Under the pieces are notes generated by a model that ran no database searches, had not been told where the DNA came from, and worked only from the letters and a program-made list of their open reading frames with translations. Positions 24,319 to 45,750 of a stretch of DNA of 64,000 nt are shown here, one piece after another. The translations under genes and the position numbers were made by a program. Position 1 is the first letter of the stretch. Every line of letters starts with the position of its first letter. The stretch lies in NCBI GenBank assembly GCA_964520555.1, contig CAZFNN010000001.1, forward strand, positions 253,858-317,857, written 5' to 3'. This stretch comes from an uncultured Ignavibacteria bacterium. Its GTDB lineage: Bacteria > Zixibacteria > MSB-5A5 > CAIYYT01.

Positions 24319-25620
24319 ATGGCAACCGTAGCACAAGAAGTGAAAATGACAGCATTAAGAGAAAAATTAGCGTCCGAATTCCCGAAAAAGGCGACGGAAA
24401 TTCGGGAAATGGTGAAACAATTCGGCAATCTGAAAATCTCCGAGGTGAGTATCGAGCAAGCCTACGGCGGCATGCGCGGCGTGAAGGGGTTGGTCTGCGA
24501 CACGTCCGAGGTTCCGCCGGATAAGGGTTTGATCATCCGGGAGATTCCGGTCGGCCAGCTCGTCGACAAGACCCCCGAAGAGACCTTCTGGCTGCTGCTG
24601 ACCGGCGAACTCCCTACCAAGGAACAACTCGCCGATCTCGACAAGGATCTCAAGGCTCGTGCTAAGGTGCCGGAATACGTTTGGAAGGTCCTCGAGGCGA
24701 TGCCGAAGGACTCGCATCCGATGGCGATGTTCAACACTGCCATTCTCGTCATGGAGAAGGAGTCGAAGTTCCGGTTGCATTACGACCAGGGGATGCCGAA
24801 GAGCGACTACTGGGTGTGGACCCTAGAAGACGCTCTCGACATCATCGCCCGCCTGCCCGAAATCGCAGCCGGCGTATACCGGATGCGTTTCGGTAAAGGC
24901 GCGCGGATTGCCTCCGATCCCAAGCTGACCTGGTCAGAAAACTACGTGAAGATGCTCGGACTGCCTGATCCGCAAGGCAAGTTCGCCGATTGCATGCGCC
25001 TGTATCTGGTGCTGCATTCCGATCATGAATCGGGCAACGTCTCGGCACATACGACGTTCTGCGTCAATTCGGCGCTGTCCGACCTCTACTACTCGCTGTC
25101 CGCCGGCCTCAACGGCCTGGCCGGTCCGCTGCACGGTCTGGCCAATCAGGAATGCCTGCACTGGATTCTTGATGTGAAGAAGAAGTTCGGCGGCGTTCCG
25201 AGTGAAGAGCAACTCAAGCAGTTTGCATGGGAAACTCTGAATTCCGGCAAGGTGGTTCCGGGTTACGGCCATGCCGTGCTGCGTATCACCGATCCGCGCT
25301 TTGCGGCCTTCCTCGACTGGGGCAAGAAGCACATTGCACAGGACGAGGTCTTCCAGATCGTTGAGCGCGTGTTCAATACCGTGCCGGGAGTGCTGCAGCA
25401 AGTGCAGAAGATCAAAGATCCATGGCCGAACGTTGATGCCGGATCGGGCGCGCTGCTGTATCACTTCGGTTTGACCGAATTCGACTATTACACGGTCCTC
25501 TTCAGCGTTTCGCGCGCTCTGGGCGTTTGTGCTCAGGCAGTCGTGGCGCGGGCGATGGGCTGGCCAATTGAACGTCCAAAGTCTGTAACAACCAAGTGGA
25601 TGAAATCACAAATCAAGTGA
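24319..25620 (+). CDS. gltA: Citrate synthase (eukaryotic/type-I-like)
   Basis: GGMRGVKGLVCDTSEV, HSDHE.GNVSAHT, GYGHAVLR.TDPR motifs; 433 aa; the N-terminal region resembles mitochondrial-type enzymes. AGAGGT RBS. Confidence 0.9.
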   Translation: MATVAQEVKMTALREKLASEFPKKATEIREMVKQFGNLKISEVSIEQAYGGMRGVKGLVCDTSEVPPDKGLIIREIPVGQLVDKTPEETFWLLLTGELPTKEQLADLDKDLKARAKVPEYVWKVLEAMPKDSHPMAMFNTAILVMEKESKFRLHYDQGMPKSDYWVWTLEDALDIIARLPEIAAGVYRMRFGKGARIASDPKLTWSENYVKMLGLPDPQGKFADCMRLYLVLHSDHESGNVSAHTTFCVNSALSDLYYSLSAGLNGLAGPLHGLANQECLHWILDVKKKFGGVPSEEQLKQFAWETLNSGKVVPGYGHAVLRITDPRFAAFLDWGKKHIAQDEVFQIVERVFNTVPGVLQQVQKIKDPWPNVDAGSGALLYHFGLTEFDYYTVLFSVSRALGVCAQAVVARAMGWPIERPKSVTTKWMKSQIK

Positions 25621-25791
25621 GACGCTTGGAACTTTGCAGCAGTGCAGACGTTAGAATTGGTAGATGACATTGAAAACAGACAACATCGCCAGATGTTGAC
25701 GATTTAATAGTAATCCTACCGGAAGGGCCTGAGGTAAATCGCTTCAGGTTGCTCCTCGGGGACCCTTCCTTATCCTACCCTGTACCCAACG

Positions 25792-25831
25792 GACCGGGGT
25801 TGTCGTCAGACGGCCCCGGTCATCCTTTTGT
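25792..25831 (+). terminator. Intrinsic terminator about 170 nt downstream of gltA
   Basis: GACCGGGG-(UUGUCGUCAGACGG)-CCCCGGUC followed by AUCCUUUUGU. Confidence 0.5.
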
Positions 25832-25872
25832 AGCAGTTATCTATCGGACTTTGTGAAATAAATCTCCATTGC

Positions 25873-26811
25873 TCAAGCACGGATGAGTGCGCGCAACGGC
25901 CGGAAGCTTATCAGCCGAAAGGCTCCTGATTCCAAGCGTTGACGCAACTCAGGGGATGTCAAGATACGGTAGTCCCAACTACGGACCTGCCAAATCAATC
26001 CCGCCCCGTCGTCGACGTGAACTCCGTCTAACTCGCTGAGCCAGGCGGCGCGGGCAGGATGGAAATACAACTCCGTGACTCCTGCTGGTAAAGCATCAAT
26101 AAGTCGCAGCGTGTAGGACAGCTTGTCGTCAAAGCTTTCGAAAGCATCGATGGGGACATATACGAAGTTGTCGGGAAAATGCAGCCCCAGATCATGTGCG
26201 TGGCCAATCCAGTCGTCTTCGTGTCCAAGTTCGCGCACCAGCATACGTGAGCCCATCCGCATGGGCAGGCGGAAACGCGCGCCAAGACGGATGTAGACCT
26301 CCGCGAATTCCGGACGTAGCTGCAGGGTACCTTCGTGGCTATCAAGGTGCGTCAAGTCCACACCAACAGACAAGACTCTCTTGATTTGGGCAATCGCCTC
26401 GCGCTCGGCCTCTTCAGGTCTGGCGTTGGCGAAAAAATCGTCGCGATTCAGGTAAAAGTGACCGTTTCTGTCTACCAGACTTGGAATTTCCGCGGCCGGC
26501 AAAATCGGTGTAGCCGGCGAATCTGGCAACGACGACGTCAACGTCAGGTGCAAGCCACAATCGGGGATCGACCCGTCCTTGACCAGCCTGACAGCCTCAT
26601 CATATGCCCTGCCGGTCGCCATAAGCGTTGTGGAACTTACCAAGCCGAGTTCAAACAGCTCGGCGATTGACCGGTTGACTGCCGGAGTCAGACCAAAATC
26701 GTCAGCATTTATGATGAGCAGCCTCTCGTCACCATCGTGTCCAAGATGTTGGGCCAACGTCGCGTTTCTCTGGCCAAGAAGGTAAGGCTCTGCCTGTACA
26801 AGTGGAATCAT
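25873..26811 (-). CDS. YdjC/ChbG-family carbohydrate deacetylase
   Basis: LLIINADDFGLTPAVNRSI N-terminal hallmark, HLTLTS, THLDSH; 312 aa. Confidence 0.75.
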   Translation of the reverse strand: MIPLVQAEPYLLGQRNATLAQHLGHDGDERLLIINADDFGLTPAVNRSIAELFELGLVSSTTLMATGRAYDEAVRLVKDGSIPDCGLHLTLTSSLPDSPATPILPAAEIPSLVDRNGHFYLNRDDFFANARPEEAEREAIAQIKRVLSVGVDLTHLDSHEGTLQLRPEFAEVYIRLGARFRLPMRMGSRMLVRELGHEDDWIGHAHDLGLHFPDNFVYVPIDAFESFDDKLSYTLRLIDALPAGVTELYFHPARAAWLSELDGVHVDDGAGLIWQVRSWDYRILTSPELRQRLESGAFRLISFRPLRALIRA

Positions 26812-26859
26812 CGCAGGATAATACGCTCGAAAGCGAGTGAGAGCAAGCTAAGCTGGACG

Positions 26860-26911
26860 GGGAAAATAAAAAGGGAGTGGTGGAGGGGGGATACCCGAAG
26901 TCAACTTCGGG
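26860..26911 (-). terminator. Intrinsic terminator between the beta-propeller gene and the ydjC-like gene (minus strand)
   Basis: Minus-strand RNA: CCCGAAG-UUGA-CUUCGGG followed by UAUCCCCCCUCCACCACUCCCUUUUUAUUUUCC. Confidence 0.5.
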
Positions 26912-27192
26912 CGGCCGGTTGGTCCGGCGCGCACCACTCCCAGAATTCCTGGCGAGTCGCGGTCAATAATAAGAGTCCGCAACCTCAACTTCGGAGCAAT
27001 TCGAGTGCCGAAAACGCTGAAGAGTCACTTAAGGACAGCCCCTCAAGATGATGTCTTACAGTAGCTTACTGTAGCACGAAGAAACTGGACTTGTCTCGCC
27101 GGCAACGAAGACAGAATTCACCCCTTTCGATGAGCTTTTTATGCAACTTGATGCATAGAACCCTGGGCCAATATCCAGTGTTCGACTTCCAG

Positions 27193-28479
27193 TTAGTCAG
27201 CGCAGCCACAAGGCGGCGGACCGCCCGCAAAGATGAAATTGATCAGGTAGACCGCGTCGCTGATCGAGAGTGAACCGCTGCAATCCGCGTCGCCGGACCC
27301 TTCGACCTGCGGTTCGGGGCCGCCGGCAAAAATGAAGTTGATCAGGTAGACGGCATCCGAGACCGAGACCGTCCCGGAGTTATCAGCGTCACCCTTGGGA
27401 ACAAAGCATTCAGGGGACTTGGCCGCCACAGCCGGACCATCGCCGACATCGAACGCCTTCAGTACGTTTCCCTGAGCGTCGATCTCAACCAAACGATCAT
27501 CGGCGAAACAGCACGCGGCCACCGTTGAATCAGTAACCGCCGTCGCCGAGGTCACGCCCCAGCAAGTAATGATGGGGTTGGAGGGTCCATGCATGATGCT
27601 CCAGCTCGCGAGGTCGACTGTAAAGACGAGTCCGCCCGAGAGCTGCGCTCTGGACAACCTCCGCTCCACGATCTGCAATCCCCCGGAATCGCGTTTGACC
27701 GGCGGCGGCCAGCCGCCGGCGGCGAGAAATGCTACCCCCGTCTTAGTGATGGCAAGCCCGCCCGGCGAACCACCGATGTCAAGCGAGTCAATAAGATTCA
27801 GGGTCGCCGGGTCGAACTTGAAGAGTCTGCCCCCGATATCGGCATAGTTGCCAGTACAAAGGATATACAAGTATCCATCGTAACCGAAGCGAGCAAGTTG
27901 GGGATTGATGCCAACCGCTACGCGCTTGACCAGCGTATCGGCGTTCAAGTCCCAGACCTCAAGCTTGCCTTGATCGTACTCGAACAACTCGTTGAAACTG
28001 GTGAGGCAGATGTAGGCGCGGCGCCCTCGGATGACGATTCCTTGCGGGCTATCGCTGTCCAGATTATCCCCTACGGGAAACTCGGTTATGACCGCGCGAC
28101 TGCCGGCATCAACTTTGGTCACTGTCGAAGCGACCAAATTCGTCACATAGATCGTGTCGGTGCCGAGAAATGCGCCGTTGTAAGGGTTCCGGCCGGCGCC
28201 GACAAAGAGCTGTCCGACTCGCGCCAAAGTGGTCATGTCGTAGAAGTAGAGATCATTGCTGCCGGAATTTATGGCAATACCCCGGCTGGCACTGACAACA
28301 AAGTCATTGGGATAGAGACCAAGTTGATCGACACCGAGCGTAGCAGCGCTATCACTCAAGTTGACTAAATCGAACGTCTCACCCAGCCCGTCAACGACGA
28401 CGAGATTGCGTTCGGCCGCCGCCACTGAGCCCCAAACCAGGATTGGCAAGAAGATCCAGGACAGATTTCGAAGAAGCAT
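27193..28479 (-). CDS. Secreted YVTN-type beta-propeller protein with a C-terminal dockerin-like double repeat; candidate surface cobalamin-capture accessory (BtuG-like role)
   Basis: Signal peptide (no lipobox). Repeated beta-propeller blade motifs (IYVTNLVASTVTKVD, AYICLTSFNELFEYD, LYILCTGNY...LFKFD). C-terminal GDADNSGTVSVSDAVYLINFIFAGGPEP and GDADCSGSLSISDAVYLINFIFAGGPPP, two 28-aa repeats matching the dockerin Ca-binding loop pattern D-x-D-x-(S/D)-G-x5-D-A-V-x-L. Its start lies 19 nt after the stop of the riboswitch-controlled TonB receptor. Confidence 0.6.
   Translation of the reverse strand: MLLRNLSWIFLPILVWGSVAAAERNLVVVDGLGETFDLVNLSDSAATLGVDQLGLYPNDFVVSASRGIAINSGSNDLYFYDMTTLARVGQLFVGAGRNPYNGAFLGTDTIYVTNLVASTVTKVDAGSRAVITEFPVGDNLDSDSPQGIVIRGRRAYICLTSFNELFEYDQGKLEVWDLNADTLVKRVAVGINPQLARFGYDGYLYILCTGNYADIGGRLFKFDPATLNLIDSLDIGGSPGGLAITKTGVAFLAAGGWPPPVKRDSGGLQIVERRLSRAQLSGGLVFTVDLASWSIMHGPSNPIITCWGVTSATAVTDSTVAACCFADDRLVEIDAQGNVLKAFDVGDGPAVAAKSPECFVPKGDADNSGTVSVSDAVYLINFIFAGGPEPQVEGSGDADCSGSLSISDAVYLINFIFAGGPPPCGCAD
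27208..27375. repeat. Two tandem 84-bp repeat units inside the CDS (encode the dockerin-like repeat pair)
   Basis: Near-identical DNA units ..CCGCCGGCAAA(G/A)ATGAA(A/G)TTGATCAGGTAGAC(C/G)GC(G/A)TC.. are visible directly. Confidence 0.6.
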
Positions 28480-28497
28480 AGTTGATTCTCCCCGTTG

Positions 28498-30705
28498 TTA
28501 GATTGCGATACGAAATGAGAGCACCAGGCTGCGCGGAGGCATCGGCATGCGCTCCAGCAGCTCGTAGCGCTGATCGAACAAGTTGTAGGCGGCCAGGCGA
28601 ATCGTGCTGCTCGTCGGCGCCACCGTAAACGTGTATTCCAAAACAAGATCATGCAGCGCGAAACCCGGTTGAGCTTTGGAATTTGCCTCACGAATGTAGC
28701 GCTCGCCGGTGAAGCTGTAGCGATAGTCCATCCGCACCTTCTTCAACATCGCCGAGACCGTGAGTCGCTCGGTGCGATTTGGTTTGAAGGGAATAGTGTT
28801 CCCGGCGTAACCCGAACCCGTTGACTCGTTCACGGCGTTAAGAGTGTTGCGCGTGTAGCTCAATTCCAGCCGGTGATTGTGAGTCGCCAATTTGATCTCG
28901 AACTCAGTGCCGGAATGACGGGCACGATCGAGATTCACCGGCCGGTACTTGCCGTCAAACTGCCGCCGCCAGACGATCATCTCGGCCAGACGGCTGGAAT
29001 ACCAGGTGTTCTTCAATTCGAGGACAATCGGTGCTTCGTGGCGAAAGAAGATTCCGAGATCGCGCGTAACTGCGGTTTCGGGCTTGAGGTCGGGATTGGA
29101 CTCGACGAAGACGTCATCGCGCCAAAACAGCGCATCGAGCGGCGGCAGTCGATACGACTCAGCATAGCTCGCCTGCACACCAAGAACGAATGGCCGGCGC
29201 ACCTGCACGGTTCCGCCCAAATACGGCGAAGTATGGCTCTCTTTATCGACGCGATCCAAACGCCAGTTGCCCTCAAGCAAGGCAGCAAGCCACCGATAAG
29301 CCGGCGACAGCCTGATCCCGCTCACAAAGGACTCGGTGCGCTGACGCGTTCGCGGCAACGAGCGGCCCGGCGCGACGAGATCGTCATTGAGAAATGTCTC
29401 GCCGGTGACTTCCCCGCCGACGTGCGGCTCGAACCACGAGGCGACCGACGGACTCCAGTCGACATCGACACGCCGAAGAATCTGGAGGTAGTTCTTTTCG
29501 TAAGGCAGGTAAGCCTCACGATCGCGGAAGTACTGACCGATTTGGCGTAATGCGACGCCGACCCGGAGGTTGGACGCATCGTAATTGGCTGCAAGAAGCA
29601 GGTTCTCCCGCTTGGCAAGAGTCGCGCCGGTCGTCTCTTGAAAGATCGCCCCGGGCAGGCCGCTGTGGCTGTTGGCTTGATGGATGATTGCCGACAGCCG
29701 CTGCCACCGTCGGGGCCGAAGTGAAGCAAACAGCGAATAGGCGCGACGGAAATTGTTGCGGCGCTCCAGATCACCGAGGTACGGGTGGGTATAGCTGTAG
29801 TCGTTCGCTTGCTGCGAGTAGTCATAGCTCAATGCCACAGCAGTGCCGAGCAGTTGTGCGCCCGCCGTTGTAGCGGCGGCGGTCTGCTCGAAACTCCCAC
29901 GCTGGAATGAAACCTGCAGCGACGGATCGCTGAGCAAGAGCGGCCGCCGGGTCGTGACACTCACCGCTCCGCCCAGGCCGTTCGCACCGAAGCGCGCCGA
30001 ACCGCCGGTCTTGACCACCTCAACCCTCTCGATGTTCTCGACTGGGATCGTGCTGAGATCGGCGGCGCCGCCATCGGGATTCAGGGGAACACCATCAAGC
30101 AAAATGAGTACGCTTTGCGGAGAGAAGCCCCGCAACGAAGCATATTGTGTGCGGCCATCGGATTCCAACTGCACACCCGTCTGCGCCAGGAACTCGCCGA
30201 GCGTATGCGCCACTGATGCCGCAATCTGAGCACGACCGTACACGACACTTCCCGGCGAAACGGAACGGGTGGAGGTAATCGTCTGCGTGGGCAATTCGAT
30301 GGTGGTGGTCTGCACCCACAGCGACAGCCCAATGCTTGTGCCCTCTCGCAGCAGAATGCCCTCCCATTGCTTTGACGCAATGAAGGCTGATTCACAGCGT
30401 ACCGACATCACCCCCGGGGTAAGCCGCGAGAGTCGAAAACGACCCTGGGAATCCGTGGTGGCAGTGACTCCCTGCGGGAGCGCGGTCACCAGCACACCGC
30501 CAACGGGTACTTCCAGCAGTGAATCGCGGACGACGCCGGTGATCTCCCCGAAGTCCTGGCATCGAACCGAGGGGGCTGTCAGCAGTGTCAGTAAGACATG
30601 GCAGGCGGCGAGTGCAGCGCAAAGATGGTGCAGACGGAACCGCTGCGGCGATGAGCGCGCCGCCAACGTGCGTTGCAGAAAAAAGGCCCGGAAGAAGTCT
30701 GTCAT
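28498..30705 (-). CDS. btuB: TonB-dependent outer-membrane receptor, BtuB-like (cobalamin riboswitch-controlled), with N-terminal carboxypeptidase-regulatory-like domain
   Basis: Plug and barrel motifs (QTGVQLESDGRTQYASLRGFSPQSVLILLDGVPLN, VEVVKTGGSARFGANGLGGAVSVTT). Start trimmed to the MTDFFRAFF Met at 30705 (signal peptide, GGAG RBS) because the track's upstream extension would run into the riboswitch. A B12 riboswitch lies immediately upstream. Confidence 0.8.
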   Translation of the reverse strand: MTDFFRAFFLQRTLAARSSPQRFRLHHLCAALAACHVLLTLLTAPSVRCQDFGEITGVVRDSLLEVPVGGVLVTALPQGVTATTDSQGRFRLSRLTPGVMSVRCESAFIASKQWEGILLREGTSIGLSLWVQTTTIELPTQTITSTRSVSPGSVVYGRAQIAASVAHTLGEFLAQTGVQLESDGRTQYASLRGFSPQSVLILLDGVPLNPDGGAADLSTIPVENIERVEVVKTGGSARFGANGLGGAVSVTTRRPLLLSDPSLQVSFQRGSFEQTAAATTAGAQLLGTAVALSYDYSQQANDYSYTHPYLGDLERRNNFRRAYSLFASLRPRRWQRLSAIIHQANSHSGLPGAIFQETTGATLAKRENLLLAANYDASNLRVGVALRQIGQYFRDREAYLPYEKNYLQILRRVDVDWSPSVASWFEPHVGGEVTGETFLNDDLVAPGRSLPRTRQRTESFVSGIRLSPAYRWLAALLEGNWRLDRVDKESHTSPYLGGTVQVRRPFVLGVQASYAESYRLPPLDALFWRDDVFVESNPDLKPETAVTRDLGIFFRHEAPIVLELKNTWYSSRLAEMIVWRRQFDGKYRPVNLDRARHSGTEFEIKLATHNHRLELSYTRNTLNAVNESTGSGYAGNTIPFKPNRTERLTVSAMLKKVRMDYRYSFTGERYIREANSKAQPGFALHDLVLEYTFTVAPTSSTIRLAAYNLFDQRYELLERMPMPPRSLVLSFRIAI

Positions 30706-30729
30706 ACAACAACTCCACGGGCGGGCATG

Positions 30730-30760
30730 AAAAAACCGACCTGTGTCAAGTCGGTCAGGA
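30730..30760 (-). terminator. Expression-platform terminator/attenuator of the cobalamin riboswitch
   Basis: Minus-strand RNA: CUGACCGAC-UUGACACAG-GUCGGU followed by UUUUUUC, about 25 nt before the btuB-like start codon. Confidence 0.55.
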
Positions 30761-30799
30761 CCAACTCCTGAACCCGCGCAGGAATAAGTGAACGATGAT

Positions 30800-30945
30800 G
30801 ACTTTCGGCAGGTCTCCTGACTTGTCAGCTTCCAACCTACTCTCCCGCGCCTTCCCGGTTTCCCAGTGGCATGGTGGGGATTTCGTAGCTGCTTACAGTA
30901 GCGGGGCTGTGTGGGAATTTCACCCACTTCCCGATTAAGCAATTG
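30800..30945 (-). ncRNA. Cobalamin (AdoCbl/B12) riboswitch
   Basis: Minus-strand RNA contains ..GGGAAGUGGGUGAAAUUCCCACACAGCCCCGCUACUGUAAGCAGC.. (conserved core), GCCACUGGGA, and the B12 box AGUCAGGAGACCUGCC, in the canonical order, in the 5' leader of a TonB-dependent receptor. Confidence 0.85.
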
Positions 30946-30975
30946 CGCCGAAAATCGTTAGCGATGTCGAAACTG

Positions 30976-31004
30976 AACCTAAACCGTCGAATTAGCATTG
31001 TCAA
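30976..31004 (-). promoter_or_regulatory. Candidate sigma70 promoter for the B12-riboswitch operon (TTGACA-17 bp-TAGGTT on the minus strand)
   Basis: Consensus -35 hexamer; weak -10; located about 20 nt upstream of the riboswitch 5' end. Confidence 0.35.
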
Positions 31005-31068
31005 GTTGATTTTTATTTCGGAATCCGCAACCAGCTAACCCAAGCAGAGTATACTCTGACTCAAGCTT

Positions 31069-32841
31069 TTGGACTTGCCTCCGACAGATGTCGGGTGTAT
31101 TCTCGACGGATATTCGCCGGCACGTCCAAGCGGAGATGAGTGGAGATCAATGACGGAGACATCAGCCAAACCAGCCAATCGGGAACGAGCCTTCTCCCAG
31201 AGTCGGCTGAACTACATTGCCGAGCTGCATGACCAGTTGCGCCCGTTTCTTGCGGGCGCCTCCCTGGCAGTACTGATCTATCATCGCAAGCGCCTGGAAC
31301 TTGAGGTTCATCTACTCAACGCCGATGAGCGCAAGCGCTATTCGCTGCGGGACATCATTTCGGCCGAATACGAACATCTTGCGGCGGAGCCGGAGATCGG
31401 CGACAGCCCGATCATCAGGGAACTGAAAAAGCACTCGGCCTTGGACGTCAACCGCCTCCGCAGGTTTCCCTTTGAGGCAGTCGAATCAATCCCGGCAATG
31501 TTCCTGGTGTATGGCGGTGCGGGCTTCGAGCATCTGGTTGAGCAGGTCATTGAGAATCTCAGCGAGTACCAATTGCGTCTGCGCAATGCCGTGCTGATCG
31601 ATGCTCTCCACCGGATCGAACTCGAGCTGGAATTACTCCAGGAGACCGGCACAATCTTGTCGATGTCGATTCGGCTCAACGAGGTCTTCAAGAGCATCGT
31701 GGCGGCGCTGGAGAAGCTGATTGCGTTTGACGCCGTCGGAATCTACATCCTGAGCCACAAGGGCGAGATGATCGACGAGCTGTTTTCGCAGGGTTATCAC
31801 GAGGACGACACCCCGGCGCTGCTACGTCTGAAGGCGGGCAAAGGTCTGGTCGGCTGGGTGGCCAAGACCGGCGAGCCGGTGATTGTGCCGAATGTCGCCG
31901 AAGATCAACGTTACGTCAAAACTCGCCAAACCACGAACTCGGAACTCGTGGTACCCCTCTTCTCCGGCAATGAGGTGATCGGCGCCTTCAATCTCGAATC
32001 CGACCGACTCGACGCCTATTCCCCGTCCGATCTGGAGATGGTGACCGCTTTCGCCAATCAGGCATCGGTGTCAATTACGCGCGCCAAACTGATTCAGGAG
32101 ACGTTGGAGAAGAACAAGATCAAAGACCAGCTCCAAGTGGCGCGGGAAATTCAAAAGTCGTTCATCCCGGCGGTGCCGCCGCGCTATCCGGGTTTCGATT
32201 TCGATGCCGTGAACATCTCGTCCGACGAGGTCGGCGGCGATTATTTTGACTTCATCCCGATTGTCGATCACCAGTTGGGAGTCACGATTGCCGATGTCTC
32301 CGGTAAAGGAGTTCCGGCGGCACTGATCATGGCCTCCTACCGGGCGTCCCTGATCGCCGAAATCCGCAACAACTATGCGATCCGCACGATTCTGCGCAAA
32401 GTAAACAACCTGATCTGCGAATCGGTCGAACGCGGGAAATTCGTGACAGCGGTCTACGGCGTGTTGGATGCCAAGAACCGGATCTTTACCTTTGCGAACG
32501 CCGGCCACAACCCGCCGATTCATTTGCGGGCGACCGGCGAGGTCGAATTCCTCACGACCGGCGGCTGGACGCTGGGAATCCAGTCGGACAAGGAATACGA
32601 GGAACGGCCGATACATATAAGGAGCGGTGACATCCTGGTGCTCTACACCGATGGGGTCACCGAAGCCGAGAATCCCCGGCAGGAATTATTTGGAACTGAC
32701 CGTCTGGTCGAGTTGGTAAAATCGAATGGTAATCGCTCTGCCCGAGAAATTCGCGAGACGATCGTTGATGAGGTGATCCGGTTCCGCGATCCGGAGACGC
32801 AGCCGGACGACCTGACCCTGATGATTATCAAGGCCGAATGA
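31069..32841 (+). CDS. GAF sensor domain plus PP2C-type serine phosphatase (SpoIIE/RsbU family)
   Basis: Central GAF-like region (VGIYILSHKGEMID...GLVGWVAKTGEPVIVPNVAEDQRY). C-terminal PPM motifs GGDYFDF, IADVSGKGVPAALIMA, VLYTDGVTEAEN, DDLTLMII. The start may be the Met at about 31150 (MTETSAK). Confidence 0.8.
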   Translation: MDLPPTDVGCILDGYSPARPSGDEWRSMTETSAKPANRERAFSQSRLNYIAELHDQLRPFLAGASLAVLIYHRKRLELEVHLLNADERKRYSLRDIISAEYEHLAAEPEIGDSPIIRELKKHSALDVNRLRRFPFEAVESIPAMFLVYGGAGFEHLVEQVIENLSEYQLRLRNAVLIDALHRIELELELLQETGTILSMSIRLNEVFKSIVAALEKLIAFDAVGIYILSHKGEMIDELFSQGYHEDDTPALLRLKAGKGLVGWVAKTGEPVIVPNVAEDQRYVKTRQTTNSELVVPLFSGNEVIGAFNLESDRLDAYSPSDLEMVTAFANQASVSITRAKLIQETLEKNKIKDQLQVAREIQKSFIPAVPPRYPGFDFDAVNISSDEVGGDYFDFIPIVDHQLGVTIADVSGKGVPAALIMASYRASLIAEIRNNYAIRTILRKVNNLICESVERGKFVTAVYGVLDAKNRIFTFANAGHNPPIHLRATGEVEFLTTGGWTLGIQSDKEYEERPIHIRSGDILVLYTDGVTEAENPRQELFGTDRLVELVKSNGNRSAREIRETIVDEVIRFRDPETQPDDLTLMIIKAE

Positions 32842-32916
32842 ATTTGACTAAACTCGACCACCGTGTTAGTTTCCCCTGGTTACCATCGAAATAAGCGTCG
32901 TGAGAACGGAGAAATA

Positions 32917-34020
32917 ATGAATTTGAGAAAACTCTTGTCCCTCGGGCTGGCCGTCGTGCTGGCCGGATTCATGATGATCGGCTGCGGCGAAGACGATGAG
33001 CCTGTCGTCGGGGCGGGCGGCGACCGCGAGGTCAAGGTCGCGGCGGTGACAACTCCGCCCAATACCGGCGACATCATAAACGACCCGGTCTGGGACAACA
33101 TCGACATCGCGTCGATCTGGATTGGTTCCGATTCAACGTACGGCGACTACTTCGGCGTCGGTGTGGTGCGGGTGCAAGCGATTCAGGACGGCCAGAACCT
33201 CTACCTGCGCTTCAACTGGGTCGATTCGTCCGAGTCGCGGCTGCCGGCACGCTGGATGTTTCAGGACACCTCGCAAGCTCTGCCGATCTGGTATCTGACC
33301 GCAGAGGCGATCCGGGGCAAGGCGGGAAATACTCTGCTGAACGTGGGCGAAGCCAACCGGAATCTATGGGAAAATGAGGACGCACTGGCGCTCTTCATCG
33401 ACTACGGCAATAACGGCGGCGAGCGTGCCAATTGCGCTTCAACCTGCCATTTCCGCGAGCCGAATGCGAACGGCGATACGCATTTCACCACGGGCGGCGG
33501 CAATATCGACGGCTGGATCTGGCGTGCGGGACGTACCGAGCCATTCGGGATTGCCGAGGACTACTTCTGGGGTGCCGACCGCAAGTACGACCAGTTTGAC
33601 CATGCGCTTTATTCGCGCAACTCGCGCTTGCCGGAGGTCGACGATTTCCAGGACACAGAACCGCGCCTGATGCACTCCACCGGCAGCAACTTCACCGGCG
33701 AACAGCTCTTTGCGCAGGATACAGTACCGCTGCAGTTCGTCGGTCAGAACTGGCAGAGTGGCGATCACATTTCCGGCTACATCTTCGACCAGAATTACAA
33801 CACAGGCAACAAGTCGCGCTATGACGTCAACGCTCAGGCGGAATATGACGCGCAGATGAGCCGCTGGAACCTCGTGCTGTGGCGCACGCTGGCGGCGCCG
33901 AATCCGGCGGAGGATGTCGCTTTCGAGGCCGGGCACTCGTACGAAGCGACCCTCGCAATCATGCGCCAGAACATGCAACGGCATTCGGGATCGCAGCCGT
34001 TCACGCTCACATTCGAGTAG
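32917..34020 (+). CDS. Lipoprotein with DOMON/EB_dh-like (CBM9-like, possible heme-binding) domain
   Basis: Lipoprotein signal MNLRKLLSLGLAVVLAGFMMIGC. DG..DPVWDNIDIA....LYLRFNWVD pattern reminiscent of EB_dh/CBM9-like domains. Contains C-A-S-T-C-H (CX3CH). The assignment is tentative. Confidence 0.4.
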   Translation: MNLRKLLSLGLAVVLAGFMMIGCGEDDEPVVGAGGDREVKVAAVTTPPNTGDIINDPVWDNIDIASIWIGSDSTYGDYFGVGVVRVQAIQDGQNLYLRFNWVDSSESRLPARWMFQDTSQALPIWYLTAEAIRGKAGNTLLNVGEANRNLWENEDALALFIDYGNNGGERANCASTCHFREPNANGDTHFTTGGGNIDGWIWRAGRTEPFGIAEDYFWGADRKYDQFDHALYSRNSRLPEVDDFQDTEPRLMHSTGSNFTGEQLFAQDTVPLQFVGQNWQSGDHISGYIFDQNYNTGNKSRYDVNAQAEYDAQMSRWNLVLWRTLAAPNPAEDVAFEAGHSYEATLAIMRQNMQRHSGSQPFTLTFE

Positions 34021-41575: not shown

Positions 41576-42961
41576 TTAGCGAAGGTACGACGGCCGCCGC
41601 CGACCACAGATCAGGTAGACCAGAAACGATGCCGCCAGACCGGGAAAGATCGGCTCGATCCCGAGCGCGTAGGTGCCGTCCGGTATCAGCTGCGTCGTAC
41701 TGAGCCAGACTGTGGAAGCGAGTCCGCCGAGCACCATCGCGACCACGGCCGCTCGACCACTCATGACGCGATTGCCGACAAAGGTTGTCAGCAGCGGAAC
41801 CAGTAGAATCGGCGTCCCGACCGAACCAAAGCCGTACCAGACCGTCACCACCGATTCAAAAAGGGCGGAAACCATGACCGTCAGAACAGCCGACCCGATC
41901 AGCGCCCATTTCGTGTAGCGATTTATGATATCATCGGTCGCATCCCGCCAGCGCGCAAAGATGTCCTTGCCAACAGTGGACGCGGCGATGAACAGGTATG
42001 AGTCGGCGGTAGAGATGACGGTCGCGATCAGCGAAACGGCGAAGATCCCGAACAACCCGGCCGGCAGGACTTGCTGCCCCAGCAGCGGAAAGGCGGAAAC
42101 GGGATCAATGTCGGGCGGCAGGATGGCTCGCGCATAGAGCCCGCAGGTCGTGGTCAGCATATCAAAGACAAACCAGCAGATGATCGAGACGAGAATACCC
42201 CGACGGGCGGTCTTCTCATCACGGGCGGCATAGCAGGCCTGGAAAAACGACGGCTCCACCAGAGTCGACAGTGCGATGAAATACCAGACGATAATGAACC
42301 AGGCGCTGTTACCCCCGTGCCATTGAAAGTGAGTTTCCGGGAGCCGGGCGGTAAGAAAATCCTGGCCGCCGTAGCCGGTGACCAGTACGATGAAGATCAC
42401 CGCGAAGCCGAGATACATGAAGAGAAAGTGCCAGATATCGGCGCGGACGAGCGTACGGAAGCCGCCAATGAAGGCATAGATTGTGACGATGACCGCGCCA
42501 ACGATGATGCCAATCGACTTCGGCCAGCCGAAGAAGGTTTGTCCGAGCACTCCTAAAATCAGAATGTAAGCTGTTGGTAGCGTCCACCCGAATACGACCA
42601 CGGCGCCGAGAATCGCCGCCGGACGGCCGTAATACTGGTTGAGGCGATCGGCAATCGTAATGAACTCGGTGCGGCGTGCCTTGGCCGCCAGCAGCCACGC
42701 AAAGAGCAAAGCGCCGAGATAGTAGGGTAATCCAAAGACGAACCAATTGGAAACCCCGTAGCGATAGGAGTATTCGCCGACACCAAGTATCCCGCCATAC
42801 CAGTTGCAGACCAGTGTGGCGACGAATGCAGGCAAGGTCAGACGGCGGCCATCCAACATGTATTCGACGGCGGTATTGCCTACCGTCGGTCGGCGCCAGA
42901 AGCTGAATACAATGATGCCGAGCAAATACGCGGCGATTATTAGTGTGTCGACGAGCTCCAA
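41576..42961 (-). CDS. Sodium:solute symporter (SSS) family permease, ThiV/PanF-like; candidate thiamine or thiamine-precursor transporter
   Basis: 13 predicted TM helices; SSS N-terminal signature (TAVEYMLDGRRLTLPAFVATLVCNWYGGILGVGE). Lies 3 nt downstream of the TPP-riboswitch-controlled TonB receptor. Confidence 0.7.
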   Translation of the reverse strand: MELVDTLIIAAYLLGIIVFSFWRRPTVGNTAVEYMLDGRRLTLPAFVATLVCNWYGGILGVGEYSYRYGVSNWFVFGLPYYLGALLFAWLLAAKARRTEFITIADRLNQYYGRPAAILGAVVVFGWTLPTAYILILGVLGQTFFGWPKSIGIIVGAVIVTIYAFIGGFRTLVRADIWHFLFMYLGFAVIFIVLVTGYGGQDFLTARLPETHFQWHGGNSAWFIIVWYFIALSTLVEPSFFQACYAARDEKTARRGILVSIICWFVFDMLTTTCGLYARAILPPDIDPVSAFPLLGQQVLPAGLFGIFAVSLIATVISTADSYLFIAASTVGKDIFARWRDATDDIINRYTKWALIGSAVLTVMVSALFESVVTVWYGFGSVGTPILLVPLLTTFVGNRVMSGRAAVVAMVLGGLASTVWLSTTQLIPDGTYALGIEPIFPGLAASFLVYLICGRRRPSYLR

Positions 42962-42964
42962 TGC

Positions 42965-45475
42965 CTACTCAAGTTCCAATCGCAAGGTGGTGAAAATCGA
43001 GCGTCCGGCAGCGGGGATGTACTCCGACCAATGCTGGTCAGGTGCGTCGCGGAATCGAGTCACGCCGCCGTAGCCAGAAACCTCGTACTTGTGATCGAGC
43101 ACGTTGTCGACCCGTGCTGCGAGTTCGAGGCGACCCAGATCGGCGATCTCTCCCAAAGTAATTCCGGCGGAAACGGCCGCTACGAAATACGGATCGATCG
43201 AAAGTTCGCGCACGTTGTCATTTTCGACATAGATGCGCCCAACCATGCGTCCACGACATGCGAGATTGAAGCGCTGGTGGCGATACTCGGCGATCAGATT
43301 TCCAATGTAGTCGGGAAAGCCGGGGATCGTCTTGCCGTCGTAAGAAAAAGAGCGGCTTTCGAGATAATTCCAGTCGGCGTCATTGTCGTAGACGGCTTCT
43401 GCGATTTCAAAGCCTTTGATCCGATTGTAATTGTACGAAAAGTTGCCGCTCAGCTGGAAATTGCGACCGACGGTGTTTGTAGTCGAGAGTTCGATCCCGG
43501 CATGCACCGATCGGTCGGCGTTGGTGGTGATCGGGAGACCGAGATCATTGAGTCCCCCATACGGCACGATCTCGTTGGCGAAGTCCATCCAGAACAGGTT
43601 CAGCGTGTGCGCACTGGATTGAGTCCGCCAGCCTAACCCCAATTCGAAATTATGAACGCGTTCCGATTGGGCGGTCGGATCGCCGAAGATAATCGTGGAA
43701 TCACTGCCGCTACGTCGGATCTCCTGGATATGTAGCGAGGGGAAGGCGTACGGATCGCCGGCATCATAAATCTCCCAGTCGGCCGGAACACGCGAAGACA
43801 GCGAGTAGCTCGCCAGCAAGTTCACCGCCGGTGCAACCGCGTAGCTGAAGCCCAGGCGCGGCGAAAGAAAAGTCCAGTCAATGTCATACGCATAACCGGC
43901 AAAAGCGCCCAGCCGGTTCTGTTTAAAACTGTAGTCTTGATGACGCAATTGCAGACTGACATTGGCAGTCAGCCGCTCGCCGAGGCGGCGGCTCTGTACT
44001 GCATAGAGTGAGCCAAACCACTTTTCACCAAAATATTCGTAGTAGCGATGACGCGGATCGATCGCGTTCGTGACGCCTTCGGCCCAAACCACTTGTCCCC
44101 AGTGGTCGGATTCGAAGTAGTAAAATGAGCCGCCGATGCTGAGAGCACCCTGCTTCTGCTGGAACTCGAGCCGCGGGTTCCAGCCCCACTGATTCTTGCG
44201 AACGTGCTGCTGCCGGACGAGATCGCCGGAAATGATGGCCTCAATCGAATCGCCGTCAGGACTGGTAATGATCGTCGCCGGAATGTTGTAGTCGGCAAAG
44301 CTGCGATCGTCGCGATACTGCTCGTAGTAACCGTCACCGTGGATGTGGAAGAGCGTGTTTTGCAGCGAGGCATTGGGACTCAACTCGTAGGTATTGTGCA
44401 GCTCGTAATGCGGTTGACTGAAATTGTCGGTCTCGTTGTCATAAGTTAACGGATTGAAACGGCGGTCGCTTTCAAGTTGCTCGCGCGAAACACCGTAGTA
44501 GGCGAGGTGCATCTGCATCGGACCGCCGTAGACATTGACCGTCGTCGTCATCCGCGGATCGAGACGCGACAGCGAAAGCTGATACGCCCAACCGTCATAC
44601 CACGCATTGCTGCGGTAGCCGTCGGAAAGCTGGCGGGAGTAGCGCCCGGCAAAATTCCAGCGACCATCAATGAGGCCGGAACGATATTCAACCGCTTGCT
44701 TCTGCATATCGCCGACCCAGCGGCCATCGTCCCAGAATCCGCCGTAACCGGTGGCCAACGAAATGCTGCGCGACTGCTCGATTCCCGCCGAGACGATATT
44801 GACTGTGCCCCCAAAGGAAGCATCCCCGTAAAGCGAACTGCCGATCCCCCGCTGCACCTGGACGTCTTTTACGCCGGCGGCAAAGTCAGGGATATCGACG
44901 AAATAGGTCGCCTGATCCTCAGGGTCGTTCAGTGGAATTCCGTTGATGTAAACTGAGACCCGTTTATCGTCGAAGCCACGGATCTTCAGATAGCTGTAAC
45001 CCAGCCCGCCGCCGGCATCGGCATAAGAATAGACATTGGGAGTGGTTTCGAGCAAGAGCGGCAACTCGCCGATCAAATAGTCCCGTTCGATATCCTGGCT
45101 CGTGAAATCGGAAAAAGCCGTCGGCGTACGCCCCACTTCGGCTCGATCCGCCGTGACGGTCACACCCTGGCTGCGAAATACCGTCGGCCGCAACTGCACG
45201 CGCACGGGGGCGCCATCGCTAACGGAAACCATCACTGGCTGGAAGCCGATGTGCTTGATCGTAATGCGTCGAGTGACGCCGGGGTCGACCTGGAACCCGA
45301 ATGCTCCATCTTTGCCGGTTACGGCGACCACACGATCGCCATCGGCGATGATGGCTGCACCTTCCACGGGTTGGCCACTCTCGTCAGTAATGAGTCCGGT
45401 CAGTTCCAAGCCGACAACTGTTGCCGACAGGACGAGGACAAGAAATGCGGAAAGAAGGAAGAGCGATTTCATCAC
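42965..45475 (-). CDS. TonB-dependent outer-membrane receptor (TPP-riboswitch-controlled; candidate thiamine receptor) with N-terminal carboxypeptidase-regulatory-like domain
   Basis: Signal peptide. CarbopepD_reg-like N-terminus (LTGLITDESGQPVEGAAIIADGDRVVAVTGKDGAFGF). Plug motifs (KIRGFDDKRVSVYINGIPLNDPEDQ, VQRGIGSSLYGDASFGGTVNIVS). 836 aa. Confidence 0.8.
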   Translation of the reverse strand: MMKSLFLLSAFLVLVLSATVVGLELTGLITDESGQPVEGAAIIADGDRVVAVTGKDGAFGFQVDPGVTRRITIKHIGFQPVMVSVSDGAPVRVQLRPTVFRSQGVTVTADRAEVGRTPTAFSDFTSQDIERDYLIGELPLLLETTPNVYSYADAGGGLGYSYLKIRGFDDKRVSVYINGIPLNDPEDQATYFVDIPDFAAGVKDVQVQRGIGSSLYGDASFGGTVNIVSAGIEQSRSISLATGYGGFWDDGRWVGDMQKQAVEYRSGLIDGRWNFAGRYSRQLSDGYRSNAWYDGWAYQLSLSRLDPRMTTTVNVYGGPMQMHLAYYGVSREQLESDRRFNPLTYDNETDNFSQPHYELHNTYELSPNASLQNTLFHIHGDGYYEQYRDDRSFADYNIPATIITSPDGDSIEAIISGDLVRQQHVRKNQWGWNPRLEFQQKQGALSIGGSFYYFESDHWGQVVWAEGVTNAIDPRHRYYEYFGEKWFGSLYAVQSRRLGERLTANVSLQLRHQDYSFKQNRLGAFAGYAYDIDWTFLSPRLGFSYAVAPAVNLLASYSLSSRVPADWEIYDAGDPYAFPSLHIQEIRRSGSDSTIIFGDPTAQSERVHNFELGLGWRTQSSAHTLNLFWMDFANEIVPYGGLNDLGLPITTNADRSVHAGIELSTTNTVGRNFQLSGNFSYNYNRIKGFEIAEAVYDNDADWNYLESRSFSYDGKTIPGFPDYIGNLIAEYRHQRFNLACRGRMVGRIYVENDNVRELSIDPYFVAAVSAGITLGEIADLGRLELAARVDNVLDHKYEVSGYGGVTRFRDAPDQHWSEYIPAAGRSIFTTLRLELE

Positions 45476-45565
45476 GGCACCTCACTATTTGCCTGCGCAT
45501 AAAAAATGCCGCCTGATCTCCGCAGGGATGGCAGCAACGCAAATCGCGTCCGTGAATCGGTCGCT

Positions 45566-45647
45566 GCCGTTTCCCTACGCCGGTATTATCCGGATCAGGT
45601 ATTGGGGGTGTGATCTCAGACGACTGGATGGTCGCCACTCCCAACGG
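45566..45647 (-). ncRNA. TPP (THI-box) riboswitch
   Basis: Minus-strand RNA: GCCGUUGGGAGUGGCGACCAUCCAGUCGUCUGAGAUCACACCCCCAAUACCUGAUCCGGAUAAUACCGGCGUAGGGAAACGGC. It contains CUGAGA, ACCCC, and ACCUGAUC-GGAUAAUACCGGCGUAGGGAA (near-identical to the consensus ACCUGAUCUGGAUAAUGCCAGCGUAGGGAA), closed by a P1 helix GCCGUU/AACGGC. About 90 nt separate it from the receptor start codon. Confidence 0.85.
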
Positions 45648-45750
45648 CAATTATGTCTTCGCAATTATTACGCAGGAGAACTGTGAACGCAAGAGGAATT
45701 TCTATCAACGCAGTCTACGCCACATTTGCCCCCGGCCGACTTCCGAAGAG

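Follow-up and report, generated by a model that had tools for sequence, protein, structure and literature searches.

Does a riboswitch-controlled locus in a Zixibacteria-type genome encode a vitamin B12 receptor with a BtuG-like capture protein and, if so, what takes the place of the lipid anchor of BtuG? We examined this question in a window of 64,000 nucleotides (the whole stretch of DNA analysed). The most likely answer, which we hold with fair though not strong confidence, is a B12-repressed BtuB-like receptor with a BtuG-like capture lid, in which a dockerin-like module and not lipidation serves for surface attachment or sorting. The sequence features described in an earlier note on this DNA were all found where it had placed them and the observation was confirmed; those parts of its interpretation that could be examined in silico were supported, several of the scores against single models being marginal.

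Riboswitch, terminator and operon layout

The regulatory region and the first gene comprised the following features:

30790..30967, minus strand: cobalamin riboswitch aptamer, RF00174 (cmscan, 108.1 bits, E 4.1e-26)
30727..30756, minus strand: expression platform, intrinsic terminator hairpin and T-run (terminator scan, minimum-free-energy fold, sequence)
28498..30705, minus strand: BtuB-like TonB-dependent receptor, 735 aa (Pfam and solved-structure sequence matches)
28480..28497, minus strand: intercistronic spacer, 18 nt, with GGGGAG ribosome-binding site (sequence)

The AdoCbl riboswitch that had been proposed for the receptor leader was recovered at full length, the alignment covering model positions 1-189 of 189 (gathering score 31.5) and enclosing the core, GCCACUG and B12-box strings quoted previously. 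Downstream of the aptamer and ahead of the receptor ATG (30705), the hairpin claimed to follow the B12 box was found by the terminator scan and was present in the minimum-free-energy fold; it has 10 bp (30756-30734, minus strand; GACCGACTTG-ACA-CAGGTCGGTT) and is followed by a T-run. Of 19 related loci, 16 had a comparable hairpin and T-run 3' of the aptamer. With ligand bound to the aptamer, the hairpin and U-tract (30756-30727) would halt transcription, and under scarce B12 the RNA polymerase would read through into the receptor and propeller genes. In E. coli btuB a leader cobalamin riboswitch likewise represses a TonB-dependent B12 receptor, whereas here regulation extends to a second cistron and the platform has the appearance of a transcription terminator; moreover, E. 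coli has no lid protein and the receptor of this locus carries an N-terminal CarboxypepD_reg domain.

The sequence between the receptor stop and the propeller ATG (CAACGGGGAGAATCAACT) leaves 18 intervening nt, so that the ATG at 28479 is the 19th base after the stop, in agreement with the 19 nt reported before. Co-transcription of both genes was supported by this short gap and by the order riboswitch, receptor and propeller, which was seen again in 19 non-redundant loci; these were all the dockerin- or TM-tailed loci with sufficient upstream sequence, and their MAGs bore the label Zixibacteria or Ignavibacteria or had no classification. In all 20 related loci a same-strand ORF of 713-894 codons ended at most 85 nt upstream of the propeller. 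On the reading favoured here, the locus is an operon of two genes for corrinoid uptake in a Zixibacteria-type (FCB-group) diderm, shut off by intracellular cobalamin. The window yielded neither a cohesin nor a secretion component nor an inner-membrane B12 transporter, which counts against this reading.

Receptor and propeller

The first gene encodes a BtuB-like TonB-dependent outer-membrane transporter. It displayed a CarboxypepD_reg N-terminal domain, a Plug and a 22-strand barrel (37.1, 70.5 and 84.5 bits for PF13620, PF07715 and PF00593, respectively), and its nearest solved structures by sequence were BtuB2 (8bmx_C, 6.8e-16) and BtuB3 (8p97_A, 3.2e-14), both from Bacteroides, which bore out its description as BtuB-like. 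Since these two proteins form complexes with BtuG (PMC10404256), the closeness speaks for a BtuG-type pairing; the score against the NCBIfam BtuB equivalog, far under the cut-off (112.6 vs. 599.7 bits), speaks against the favoured reading.

The second gene encodes a protein of 428 aa with a signal peptide, seven blades and a duplicated dockerin-like module at its end:

28414..28479, minus strand: type I (Sec) signal peptide, about residues 1-22 (translation)
27415..28413, minus strand: YVTN-type seven-bladed beta-propeller, BtuG-like, about residues 23-355 (AF2, Foldseek, profile E-values, hhalign)

Residues 1-30 contain no Cys and the lipobox is therefore absent; residues 2-17 were modelled as a helix with low pLDDT. 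The product is a seven-bladed propeller, Sec-exported and without lipidation, that is homologous to BtuG of Bacteroides, and the earlier claim of a secreted protein without lipidation was upheld. In Foldseek comparisons of the AF2 model (pLDDT 89.7) with the PDB, the top 16 matches were all BtuG1, BtuG2 or BtuG3 (E 1.9e-18 to 7.8e-17, target TM-score 0.73-0.80); the family profile matched BtuG chains at E 8.5e-14 to 2.4e-11, and hhalign gave a probability of 96.6% with BtuG3. This indicated a remote homology between propeller and BtuG, as had been suspected. Homology thus stood at the level of profiles and hhalign, but not by the Pfam model of the BtuG family, DUF5074, under whose threshold the window propeller fell (a point against the favoured reading); BtuG3 scored 74.7 bits and P0057, a distant member of the propeller family, passed with 40.6 bits. 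The YVTN model TIGR02276 gave 27.7 bits, just under the cut-off of 27.85. Blade 6 of the window propeller contains a 26-residue low-confidence insertion.

The Bacteroides BtuB1G1, BtuB2G2 and BtuB3G3 complexes capture B12 at the outer membrane (Wexler 2018, PMC6143338; Abellon-Ruiz 2023, PMC10404256). The corrin ligands of BtuG2, Q93, N107, S131, Y196, Q219 and Y239 (PMC13616437; bioRxiv 10.1101/2024.02.16.580637), aligned with N58, N71/S72, N98, F162, N192 and Y212 of the propeller, respectively, positions that were invariant or at least 94% conserved among 33 homologues. Most likely, the corrinoid would be bound in the central cavity through N58, N71/S72, N98, N192/Q194, Y212 and F162, and the propeller would hand the vitamin to the receptor, acting as an extracellular lid. 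Some of the aligned polar residues belong to the 'xPxG' motif common to YVTN blades, so their conservation may be structural. Two further observations weigh against the favoured reading: the BtuG2 loop NEGNF (Glu55, Gly56 and the DMB-stacking Phe58) is deleted in the propeller family according to hhalign, and Trp149, Trp194 and Ser195 of BtuG2 are unconserved there.

Such differences would suit a generic YVTN-type surface protein that binds no B12 and either serves the receptor otherwise or takes a different ligand. This we regard as very unlikely. The strongest PDB profile match of the family was indeed the archaeal YVTN protein 1L0Q (8.1e-32), the window protein has neither a DUF5074 match nor the Phe58 loop, and the lipoprotein relative P0057 stands behind a receptor without a cobalamin riboswitch. 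In Foldseek, however, all 16 BtuG chains ranked above 1L0Q; propeller and BtuG share Y212 and amide side chains at 58 and 192, whereas 1L0Q has Lys and Ala at the positions of Y212 and N192 and is unaligned at 58; and in the 19 loci the propeller was strictly linked to a BtuB-like receptor and RF00174.

The dockerin-like tail

27196..27414, minus strand: C-terminal dockerin-like module, residues 356-428 (PF00404, profile, AF2)

The two 28-aa repeats, exactly as quoted in the earlier note, are Ca-loop-plus-helix units at residues 363-390 and 396-423, with helices modelled by AF2 at 373-385 and 406-418 and four Cys (358, 400, 424 and 426) in the tail. Against a Dockerin_1 (PF00404) cut-off of 22.9 bits, the whole protein scored 19.9 and the isolated tail 24.1 bits, the family profile matched solved dockerins at 3.8e-5, and the best matches retrieved by the tail were multi-dockerin PF00404 proteins. 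This indicated that the tail is a member of the dockerin family, as the earlier reading held. It shares with type I dockerins the C-terminal position and two tandem segments, each with a helix after a DxDxSG...D calcium loop. Unlike them, it belongs to a putative vitamin-capturing propeller from a candidate phylum that is not cellulolytic, and it has four conserved Cys and a characteristic AVYLINFIFAGGPxP helix; the whole protein remains under the Pfam cut-off, and no cohesin was found among 21 window ORFs scanned against Pfam.

Unrelated exported proteins of Zixibacteria, scores of them among the matches listed, ended in the same four-cysteine module; S8 proteases, VCBS/FG-GAP proteins, PQQ dehydrogenases and beta-helix proteins are examples. 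It lay within the last ~75 residues in all 64 unrelated proteins listed, with up to 79% identity to the window tail, and signal-peptide-like N-termini were present in 54 of 65 by a crude hydrophobicity count. The tail is thus a lineage-wide module and not an invention of the window propeller. In keeping with this distribution, the tail might instead be a sorting or secretion tag, possibly cleaved, for an export or attachment route specific to Zixibacteria, with a role like that of the T9SS C-terminal domain or PEP-CTERM; in that case the propeller would remain a B12 lid, and the tail would govern its reaching the surface, not its staying there. We consider this alternative to a dockerin-cohesin anchor unlikely, although it is the strongest of those weighed. 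It is favoured by the lack of a cohesin in the window and of a curated NCBIfam model for the tail, and by the best 150 matches in a library of 1.84 billion proteins, 93 of which had the best-matching stretch ending at most 20 residues from the C-terminus. Yet within a single cellulosomal species dockerins, too, are nearly identical and for the most part C-terminal, and the tail has the calcium loop, helix pattern and PF00404 matches of a true dockerin. In addition, the module occurred near N-termini (21 of the 150), internally and in tandem arrays (6-12 Dockerin_1 stretches in 8 of 10 top matches scanned with Pfam), a pattern more in line with a binding module than with a cleaved signal. The Ca-binding four-cysteine module would replace the N-terminal lipid anchor of BtuG, and most likely tethers or sorts the propeller to the cell surface through a putative partner.

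Homologues carried other anchors. P0057 displayed a lipobox (LAGC) on the same propeller type, and P0052 and P0053, still behind RF00174 and a receptor, ended in a TM helix followed by KRRG. Every homologue examined had an anchor-type module (lipobox, dockerin-like tail, or TM helix with basic tail). This argues against a soluble corrinoid binder (secreted scavenger or periplasmic shuttle) whose tail only confers stability through Ca and disulfides, as do the position of the propeller gene, always directly downstream of the receptor gene, and the characterised BtuG homologues, all of which sit on BtuB as stable lids, their B12 site turned toward the barrel (PMC10404256). Such a binder is improbable, even though the signal peptide is of type I only with no known signal for outer-membrane translocation, a periplasmic binding protein of BtuF type is missing from the operon, and the four conserved Cys would suit an oxidising periplasmic or extracellular compartment.

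Probable B12 lids outside Bacteroidota

Like the Bacteroides BtuB-BtuG systems, the locus is controlled by a cobalamin riboswitch and pairs a receptor gene, nearest to BtuB2/BtuB3, with an adjoining gene for a seven-bladed propeller that is homologous in profile and fold and keeps several corrin-amide ligand positions. It differs from them in its Zixibacteria-type host, in the C-terminal dockerin-like module found instead of a lipobox or lipoprotein export signal, in the unreached DUF5074, deleted Glu55/Phe58 loop and blade 6 insertion, and in an operon of only two genes without BtuH, BtuJ, BtuK and BtuFCD. Lipoprotein lids on TonB-dependent transporters (SusD, XusB, HmuY, DUF4249 and others) have been described by Price et al. 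(bioRxiv 10.1101/2023.03.17.533168), with receptor-lid pairs reported almost confined to Bacteroidota. As in those pairs, a gene for an accessory substrate-binding protein adjoins that of the transporter, on top of which the protein presumably works; in contrast to them, the lid here would lack lipidation and belong to another phylum. In the literature searched, no paper joined BtuG or Zixibacteria with dockerin, in keeping with the earlier statement that the combination had not been described. A non-lipidated BtuG-like propeller in a Zixibacteria-type genome suggests that B12 "lids" appear to exist beyond Bacteroidota, attached differently.

Cobalamin riboswitch operon and its conservation

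We consider it probable that B12 represses a bicistronic operon whose products would be a BtuB-like transporter plus a BtuG-like lid that captures corrinoids, with surface attachment or sorting of the lid relying on the dockerin-like module of this lineage. The elements of the operon were located as follows:

30790-30967 (-): cobalamin riboswitch aptamer (RF00174, model positions 1-189 of 189)
30756-30734 (-): terminator hairpin of 10 bp, GACCGACTTG-ACA-CAGGTCGGTT, followed by a T-run (terminator scan and sequence)
28498-30705 (-): TonB-dependent receptor of 735 aa with CarboxypepD_reg, Plug and TonB-barrel domains
28479-27193 (-): propeller gene, 428 aa, starting 18 nt past the receptor CDS (spacer CAACGGGGAGAATCAACT)

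The full aptamer scored 108.1 bits with the covariance model (gathering score 31.5; E 4.1e-26), and the strings given in the earlier note for the core, GCCACUG and the B12 box all fell inside this alignment; the cobalamin riboswitch claimed there was thus recovered as a match of sequence and structure, with AdoCbl as its putative ligand. The terminator hairpin and U-run, also claimed 3' of the aptamer, were seen in the sequence, in the terminator scan and in the leader structure of minimum free energy, 34 nt downstream of the aptamer. For the receptor gene, the start of the longest ORF (30942) was discarded because it overlaps the aptamer, and the ATG at 30705, with GGAG just before it, was taken. 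The propeller gene, described before as starting 19 nt after the receptor stop on the same strand, begins with an ATG at 28479 after 18 intervening nt. A sigma-70 scan detected no promoter upstream of the riboswitch, a result of little weight as this consensus differs from FCB-group promoters. The G+C content of the window was 57%.

With a Plug domain (PF07715, 70.5 bits) followed by a 22-strand barrel (PF00593, 84.5 bits), the receptor presented the domains of a TonB-dependent transporter. Its nearest solved structures by sequence were BtuB2 of B. thetaiotaomicron (8bmx_C, 6.8e-16) and BtuB3 (8p97_A and 8p98_A, around 3e-14), which are receptors forming complexes with BtuG; E. coli BtuB aligned at about 1e-9 and in the plug only. 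Scores remained far under the NCBIfam BtuB equivalog cut-offs (112.6 vs. 599.7 bits for TIGR01779 and 73 vs. 836 for NF007926). The receptor is therefore named BtuB-like, on the basis of its context and nearest solved relatives, rather than an E. coli BtuB equivalog.

Conservation was analyzed in 30 related loci, obtained from the contigs of six homologues and from a scan of GTDB representative genomes; the scan was performed with a narrower alignment (A2), the alignment of 33 full-length propeller homologues (A1) being too diverse. RF00174 was found upstream of the receptor gene, on the same strand, in the related loci L001, L002, L004/L005, L006/L007 and L010 and in 14 of 17 further loci; in the three negatives (L020, L025, and L027) less than 2.3 kb of sequence precedes the propeller gene. 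Overall, 19 non-redundant loci displayed the riboswitch-receptor-propeller order, which was present at every tailed locus whose upstream sequence was long enough. A position beside btuB in a cobalamin-riboswitch locus, a criterion of BtuG, was thus found in the window and in these 19 loci. A same-strand ORF of 713-894 codons ended at most 85 nt before the propeller gene in all cases (20/20), and 16 of 19 loci had a hairpin with T-run 3' of the aptamer, frequently containing the identical CCGACTT...AAGTCGGTTTTTT. The organisms were given in the source records as Zixibacteria, which belong to the FCB group, 'uncultured Ignavibacteria' MAGs, or unclassified; a BamA encoded in the window indicated that the organism is diderm.

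The surroundings of the operon were also shared to variable extents. In the window the shared stretch spans 24319-34020. Genes for a YdjC-type carbohydrate deacetylase and for citrate synthase lay downstream in L001, L002, L004, L005, and the window, and only the window and L001 had a divergent GAF-SpoIIE phosphatase with an EB_dh-like haem-binding protein on the upstream side. The propeller gene was always followed by 381-795 nt in which no gene was called and no terminator was detected by a simple scan; in the window, these 381 nt (26812-27192) contained no convincing ORF or terminator. In L028 and L030 the propeller gene appeared frameshifted, with the tail in a separate short ORF and P0047 truncated, which could reflect assembly errors or pseudogenes.

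A second riboswitch-linked receptor was present in the window:

45555-45652 (-): TPP riboswitch (RF00059, 64.4 bits)
42965-45475 (-): second receptor, downstream of the TPP riboswitch, with CarboxypepD_reg, Plug and barrel domains
41576-42961 (-): PanF-like sodium:solute symporter, after the second receptor

This stretch (41576-45652) looks like an uptake operon for thiamine or a thiamine precursor, composed of an outer-membrane receptor and an SSF-family inner-membrane carrier; no lid gene was found in it. TonB/ExbBD and BtuFCD genes were not found among the 21 window ORFs scanned.

The propeller and its relation to BtuG

The N-terminus of the propeller, MLLRNLSWIFLPILVWGSVAAA/ERN, is a signal peptide without cysteine, so that both the export signal and the lack of a lipobox described in the earlier note held. 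The AlphaFold2 model (mean pLDDT 89.7, pTM 0.86) displayed 30 strands forming seven four-stranded blades, followed by two helices in the tail. When this model was compared with the PDB by Foldseek, places 1-16 corresponded to BtuG1, BtuG2, BtuG3, and the BtuG2 homologue 3DSM (E 1.9e-18 to 7.8e-17; target TM-score 0.73-0.80), the next match being the archaeal YVTN protein 1L0Q (7.5e-16). What these PDB entries are is confirmed by PMC10404256. The BtuG-like character proposed for the propeller was thus recovered at the level of predicted structure.

At the sequence level the relationship was more distant. No match to DUF5074 (PF16819), the Pfam family of BtuG, was obtained in the propeller even at E<=10, whereas homology was evident between profiles: the family profile, searched against all sequences of the PDB, reached BtuG chains at 8.5e-14 to 2.4e-11, and hhalign of A1 with part of BtuG3 (8p97_B, residues 10-267, as reconstructed from a printed alignment) gave 96.6% probability over 208 columns. 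DUF5074 scored 74.7 bits in BtuG3 and 40.6 in the distant relative P0057, with sub-threshold values in the homologues P0051 (18.9) and P0031 (14.2). As to the YVTN type also ascribed to the propeller, model TIGR02276 was narrowly missed (27.7 bits vs. a cut-off of 27.85) whereas the family profile matched the YVTN structure 1L0Q at 8.1e-32, more strongly than any BtuG chain. Since homology to BtuG was at profile level and DUF5074 was reached only by a distant relative, the propeller family is a divergent sister group to DUF5074/BtuG among YVTN propellers. Blade 6 carried an insertion of 26 residues, WPPPVKRDSGGLQIVERRLSRAQLSGG (residues ~258-283, window ~27631-27708, minus strand; pLDDT 53-73), with variable-length forms in closer homologues (≥47% identity) and missing in more distant ones.

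The corrin ligands of BtuG2 are E55, G56, F58, Q93, N107, S131, R135, W149, S195, Y196, Q219, and Y239, and its upper-ligand pocket is lined by W194, W272, Y316, and Y335 (PMC13616437; bioRxiv 10.1101/2024.02.16.580637); residue numbers in BtuG3 are those of BtuG2 minus 11. HMM and hhalign alignments placed Q93 at N58 of the window propeller, N107 at N71/S72, S131 at N98, Y196 at F162, Q219 at N192, and Y239 at Y212, all of them invariant or at least 94% conserved among the 33 homologues. The counterparts of N192 and Y212 in 1L0Q are Ala and Lys, which argues that part at least of the pattern is common to BtuG and not generic to YVTN propellers. Against this, the NEGNF loop of BtuG2, with E55, G56, and the DMB-stacking F58, was deleted in the window propeller family, where NGL-GET occurs instead; W149, W194, and S195 were not conserved, and several conserved residues of the family fell in the generic blade motif. 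Weighing the shared positions against these losses, the propeller would be a likely binder of corrinoids. That it does not bind B12 at all would be in line with the missing loop; Y212 and the amide side chains at 58 and 192, shared with BtuG, speak against it, and we regard it as very unlikely.

The dockerin-like tail and other anchors

The corrinoid-binding lid we favor ends in a dockerin-like tail (residues 356-428; window 27196-27414, minus strand), in which the two 28-aa repeats quoted in the earlier note were found:

residues 363-390: first 28-aa repeat
residues 396-423: second 28-aa repeat, followed by CGCAD

Each repeat displayed the calcium-loop pattern D-x-D-x-S-G...D followed by a helix (residues 373-385 and 406-418 in the AlphaFold2 model). 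The tail could be aligned with solved dockerins such as 4uyp_B, and the family profile matched solved dockerins at 3.8e-5 and weaker. With Dockerin_1 (PF00404; cut-off 22.9 bits), the whole protein remained below the cut-off (19.9 bits) and the isolated tail scored above it (24.1 bits); the propeller homologues P0049 and P0031 reached 40.8 and 32.1 bits.

The full-length query matched 642 proteins, most of those listed through their last 60-70 residues only, with identity up to 79%. The tail carriers listed comprised subtilases, VCBS/FG-GAP proteins, PQQ sugar dehydrogenases, and beta-helix, SBBP-repeat, and beta-lactamase-fold proteins, and all those with a named source were Zixibacteria. In the unrelated tail-bearing proteins listed, the module was inside the last ~75 residues in every case (64/64), and signal-peptide-like N-termini were counted in 54 of 65 tail-bearing proteins by a crude hydrophobicity criterion. 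The cysteines of the module were usually four (proteins P0055-P0120 and the window): one before repeat 1, one in the GDADCSG of the second calcium loop, and two at the extreme C-terminus, a spacing which suggests two disulfides. The C-terminal end was CGCAD in the propeller family and PCAACP in most other carriers, so that module ends perhaps differ by subfamily.

The 73-residue tail searched against 1.84 billion cluster representatives matched 25,094 proteins at E<=0.001, of which 4,812 reached E<=1e-10. Among the 150 best matches, the best-matching stretch ended at most 20 residues from the C-terminus in 93 and started near the N-terminus in 21, and 44 presented four or more matched stretches; 6-12 Dockerin_1 stretches occurred in eight of the 10 top matches scanned. 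Tandem-dockerin proteins, some with an S8 peptidase or peptidoglycan-binding domain (P0123, P0131), were present among P0121-P0137 from this search. By alignment, the protein of PDB 8X39/8X3A is a double-dockerin serine protease; the literature retrieved for these entries consisted of unrelated papers only. The PF00404 matches, the solved-dockerin matches and these library relatives taken together indicated that the tail truly belongs to the dockerin family and is widely used on exported proteins in Zixibacteria. Judging from its carriers, it is a phylum-wide module and not a speciality of B12 uptake.

Anchoring through a dockerin-cohesin pair could hold the propeller at the surface. No cohesin was found among the 21 window ORFs scanned against Pfam, and a tail HMM turned up no further ORF with such a tail, either in the window or in the sequence flanking the related loci. 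The CarboxypepD_reg domain of the receptor was rejected as a partner of the tail, as it also occurs on the thiamine-linked receptor of the window and on receptors beside propeller homologues; in SusC-type transporters this domain is periplasmic. The tail might alternatively be a sorting signal and no cohesin-binding anchor, which concerns the tail only and which we regard as rather unlikely: its C-terminal position and the lack of a cohesin among the window ORFs scanned are consistent with such a role, and its dockerin homology speaks for the other. No NCBIfam model exists for the tail, which indicates that it is not among the curated sorting domains, of which PEP-CTERM and the T9SS C-terminal domain are examples.

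Other attachment modules occurred in the propeller family. P0052 (L010, 8001-9176) and P0053, still located behind RF00174 and a receptor, had, in place of the tail, a hydrophobic helix at the C-terminus with KRRG as its last residues, which resembles an anchor of the sorting-signal type. P0057 (L008, 7035-8048), a distant relative which passes DUF5074, was alone in having a lipobox (LAGC, then ENQDD); it has no tail, and its signal peptide could be aligned with that of BtuG3. A receptor gene precedes it, but no cobalamin riboswitch was detected at L008 even at E<=1; P0057 was therefore dropped as a B12-linked bridge, and its substrate may differ. All three architectures observed among the 33 aligned homologues thus bore a membrane- or surface-attachment module, which is the best indirect argument that the tail would do the job of the lipid anchor in Bacteroides. 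With its cysteine-free signal peptide the propeller could also be a soluble periplasmic or secreted binder; beside an attachment module on every architecture, we hold this to be improbable.

Relation to known receptor-lid pairs

What sets this locus apart, a BtuG-like propeller that has a dockerin-family tail and no lipid anchor, was upheld, and the order of riboswitch, receptor and propeller is real and conserved in 19 further loci. The system of the window would work like BtuBG of Bacteroides as regards riboswitch, receptor and propeller, whereas the propeller lacks two defining features of BtuG, lipoprotein status and a DUF5074 match. Wexler et al. found BtuG homologues in Bacteroidetes only, among 313 gut genomes, and defined BtuG as surface lipoproteins with lipobox and export signal (PMC6143338). 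Price et al. reported that receptor-lid pairs are almost all from Bacteroidota, and guessed that diderms elsewhere are unable to bring lipoproteins to their surface (bioRxiv 10.1101/2023.03.17.533168). The passages of a 2026 review that trace BtuH and BtuJ outside Bacteroidota do not do so for BtuG. In the literature searched, no paper joined BtuG or Zixibacteria with dockerin, and nothing relevant appeared on dockerin with TonB-dependent and riboswitch, or on dockerin in FCB candidate phyla.

In the window and its 19 relatives, a pair of the BtuB/BtuG type is governed by the same riboswitch logic in an FCB-group phylum other than Bacteroidota, with the lipid anchor exchanged for a dockerin-like module or, in some relatives, for a C-terminal transmembrane signal. 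If the propeller binds corrinoids at the cell surface, lid-based high-affinity B12 capture would reach environmental sediment and soil lineages, the anchor would be an exchangeable module, and the tail of many exported proteins of Zixibacteria would gain a concrete, testable function. In applications that already employ BtuG2, the propeller could be an alternative, as a corrinoid binder that carries no lipid and is soluble by nature. More tentatively, and with some doubt on our side, Zixibacteria might place lids of TonB transporters without surface lipoproteins, by means of the phylum-wide, calcium-binding, four-cysteine module, the BtuG-like lid being one cargo among many. If such a general tail-based display or sorting is true, it would represent an undescribed pathway of envelope attachment and would answer why transporter lids seem confined to Bacteroidota.
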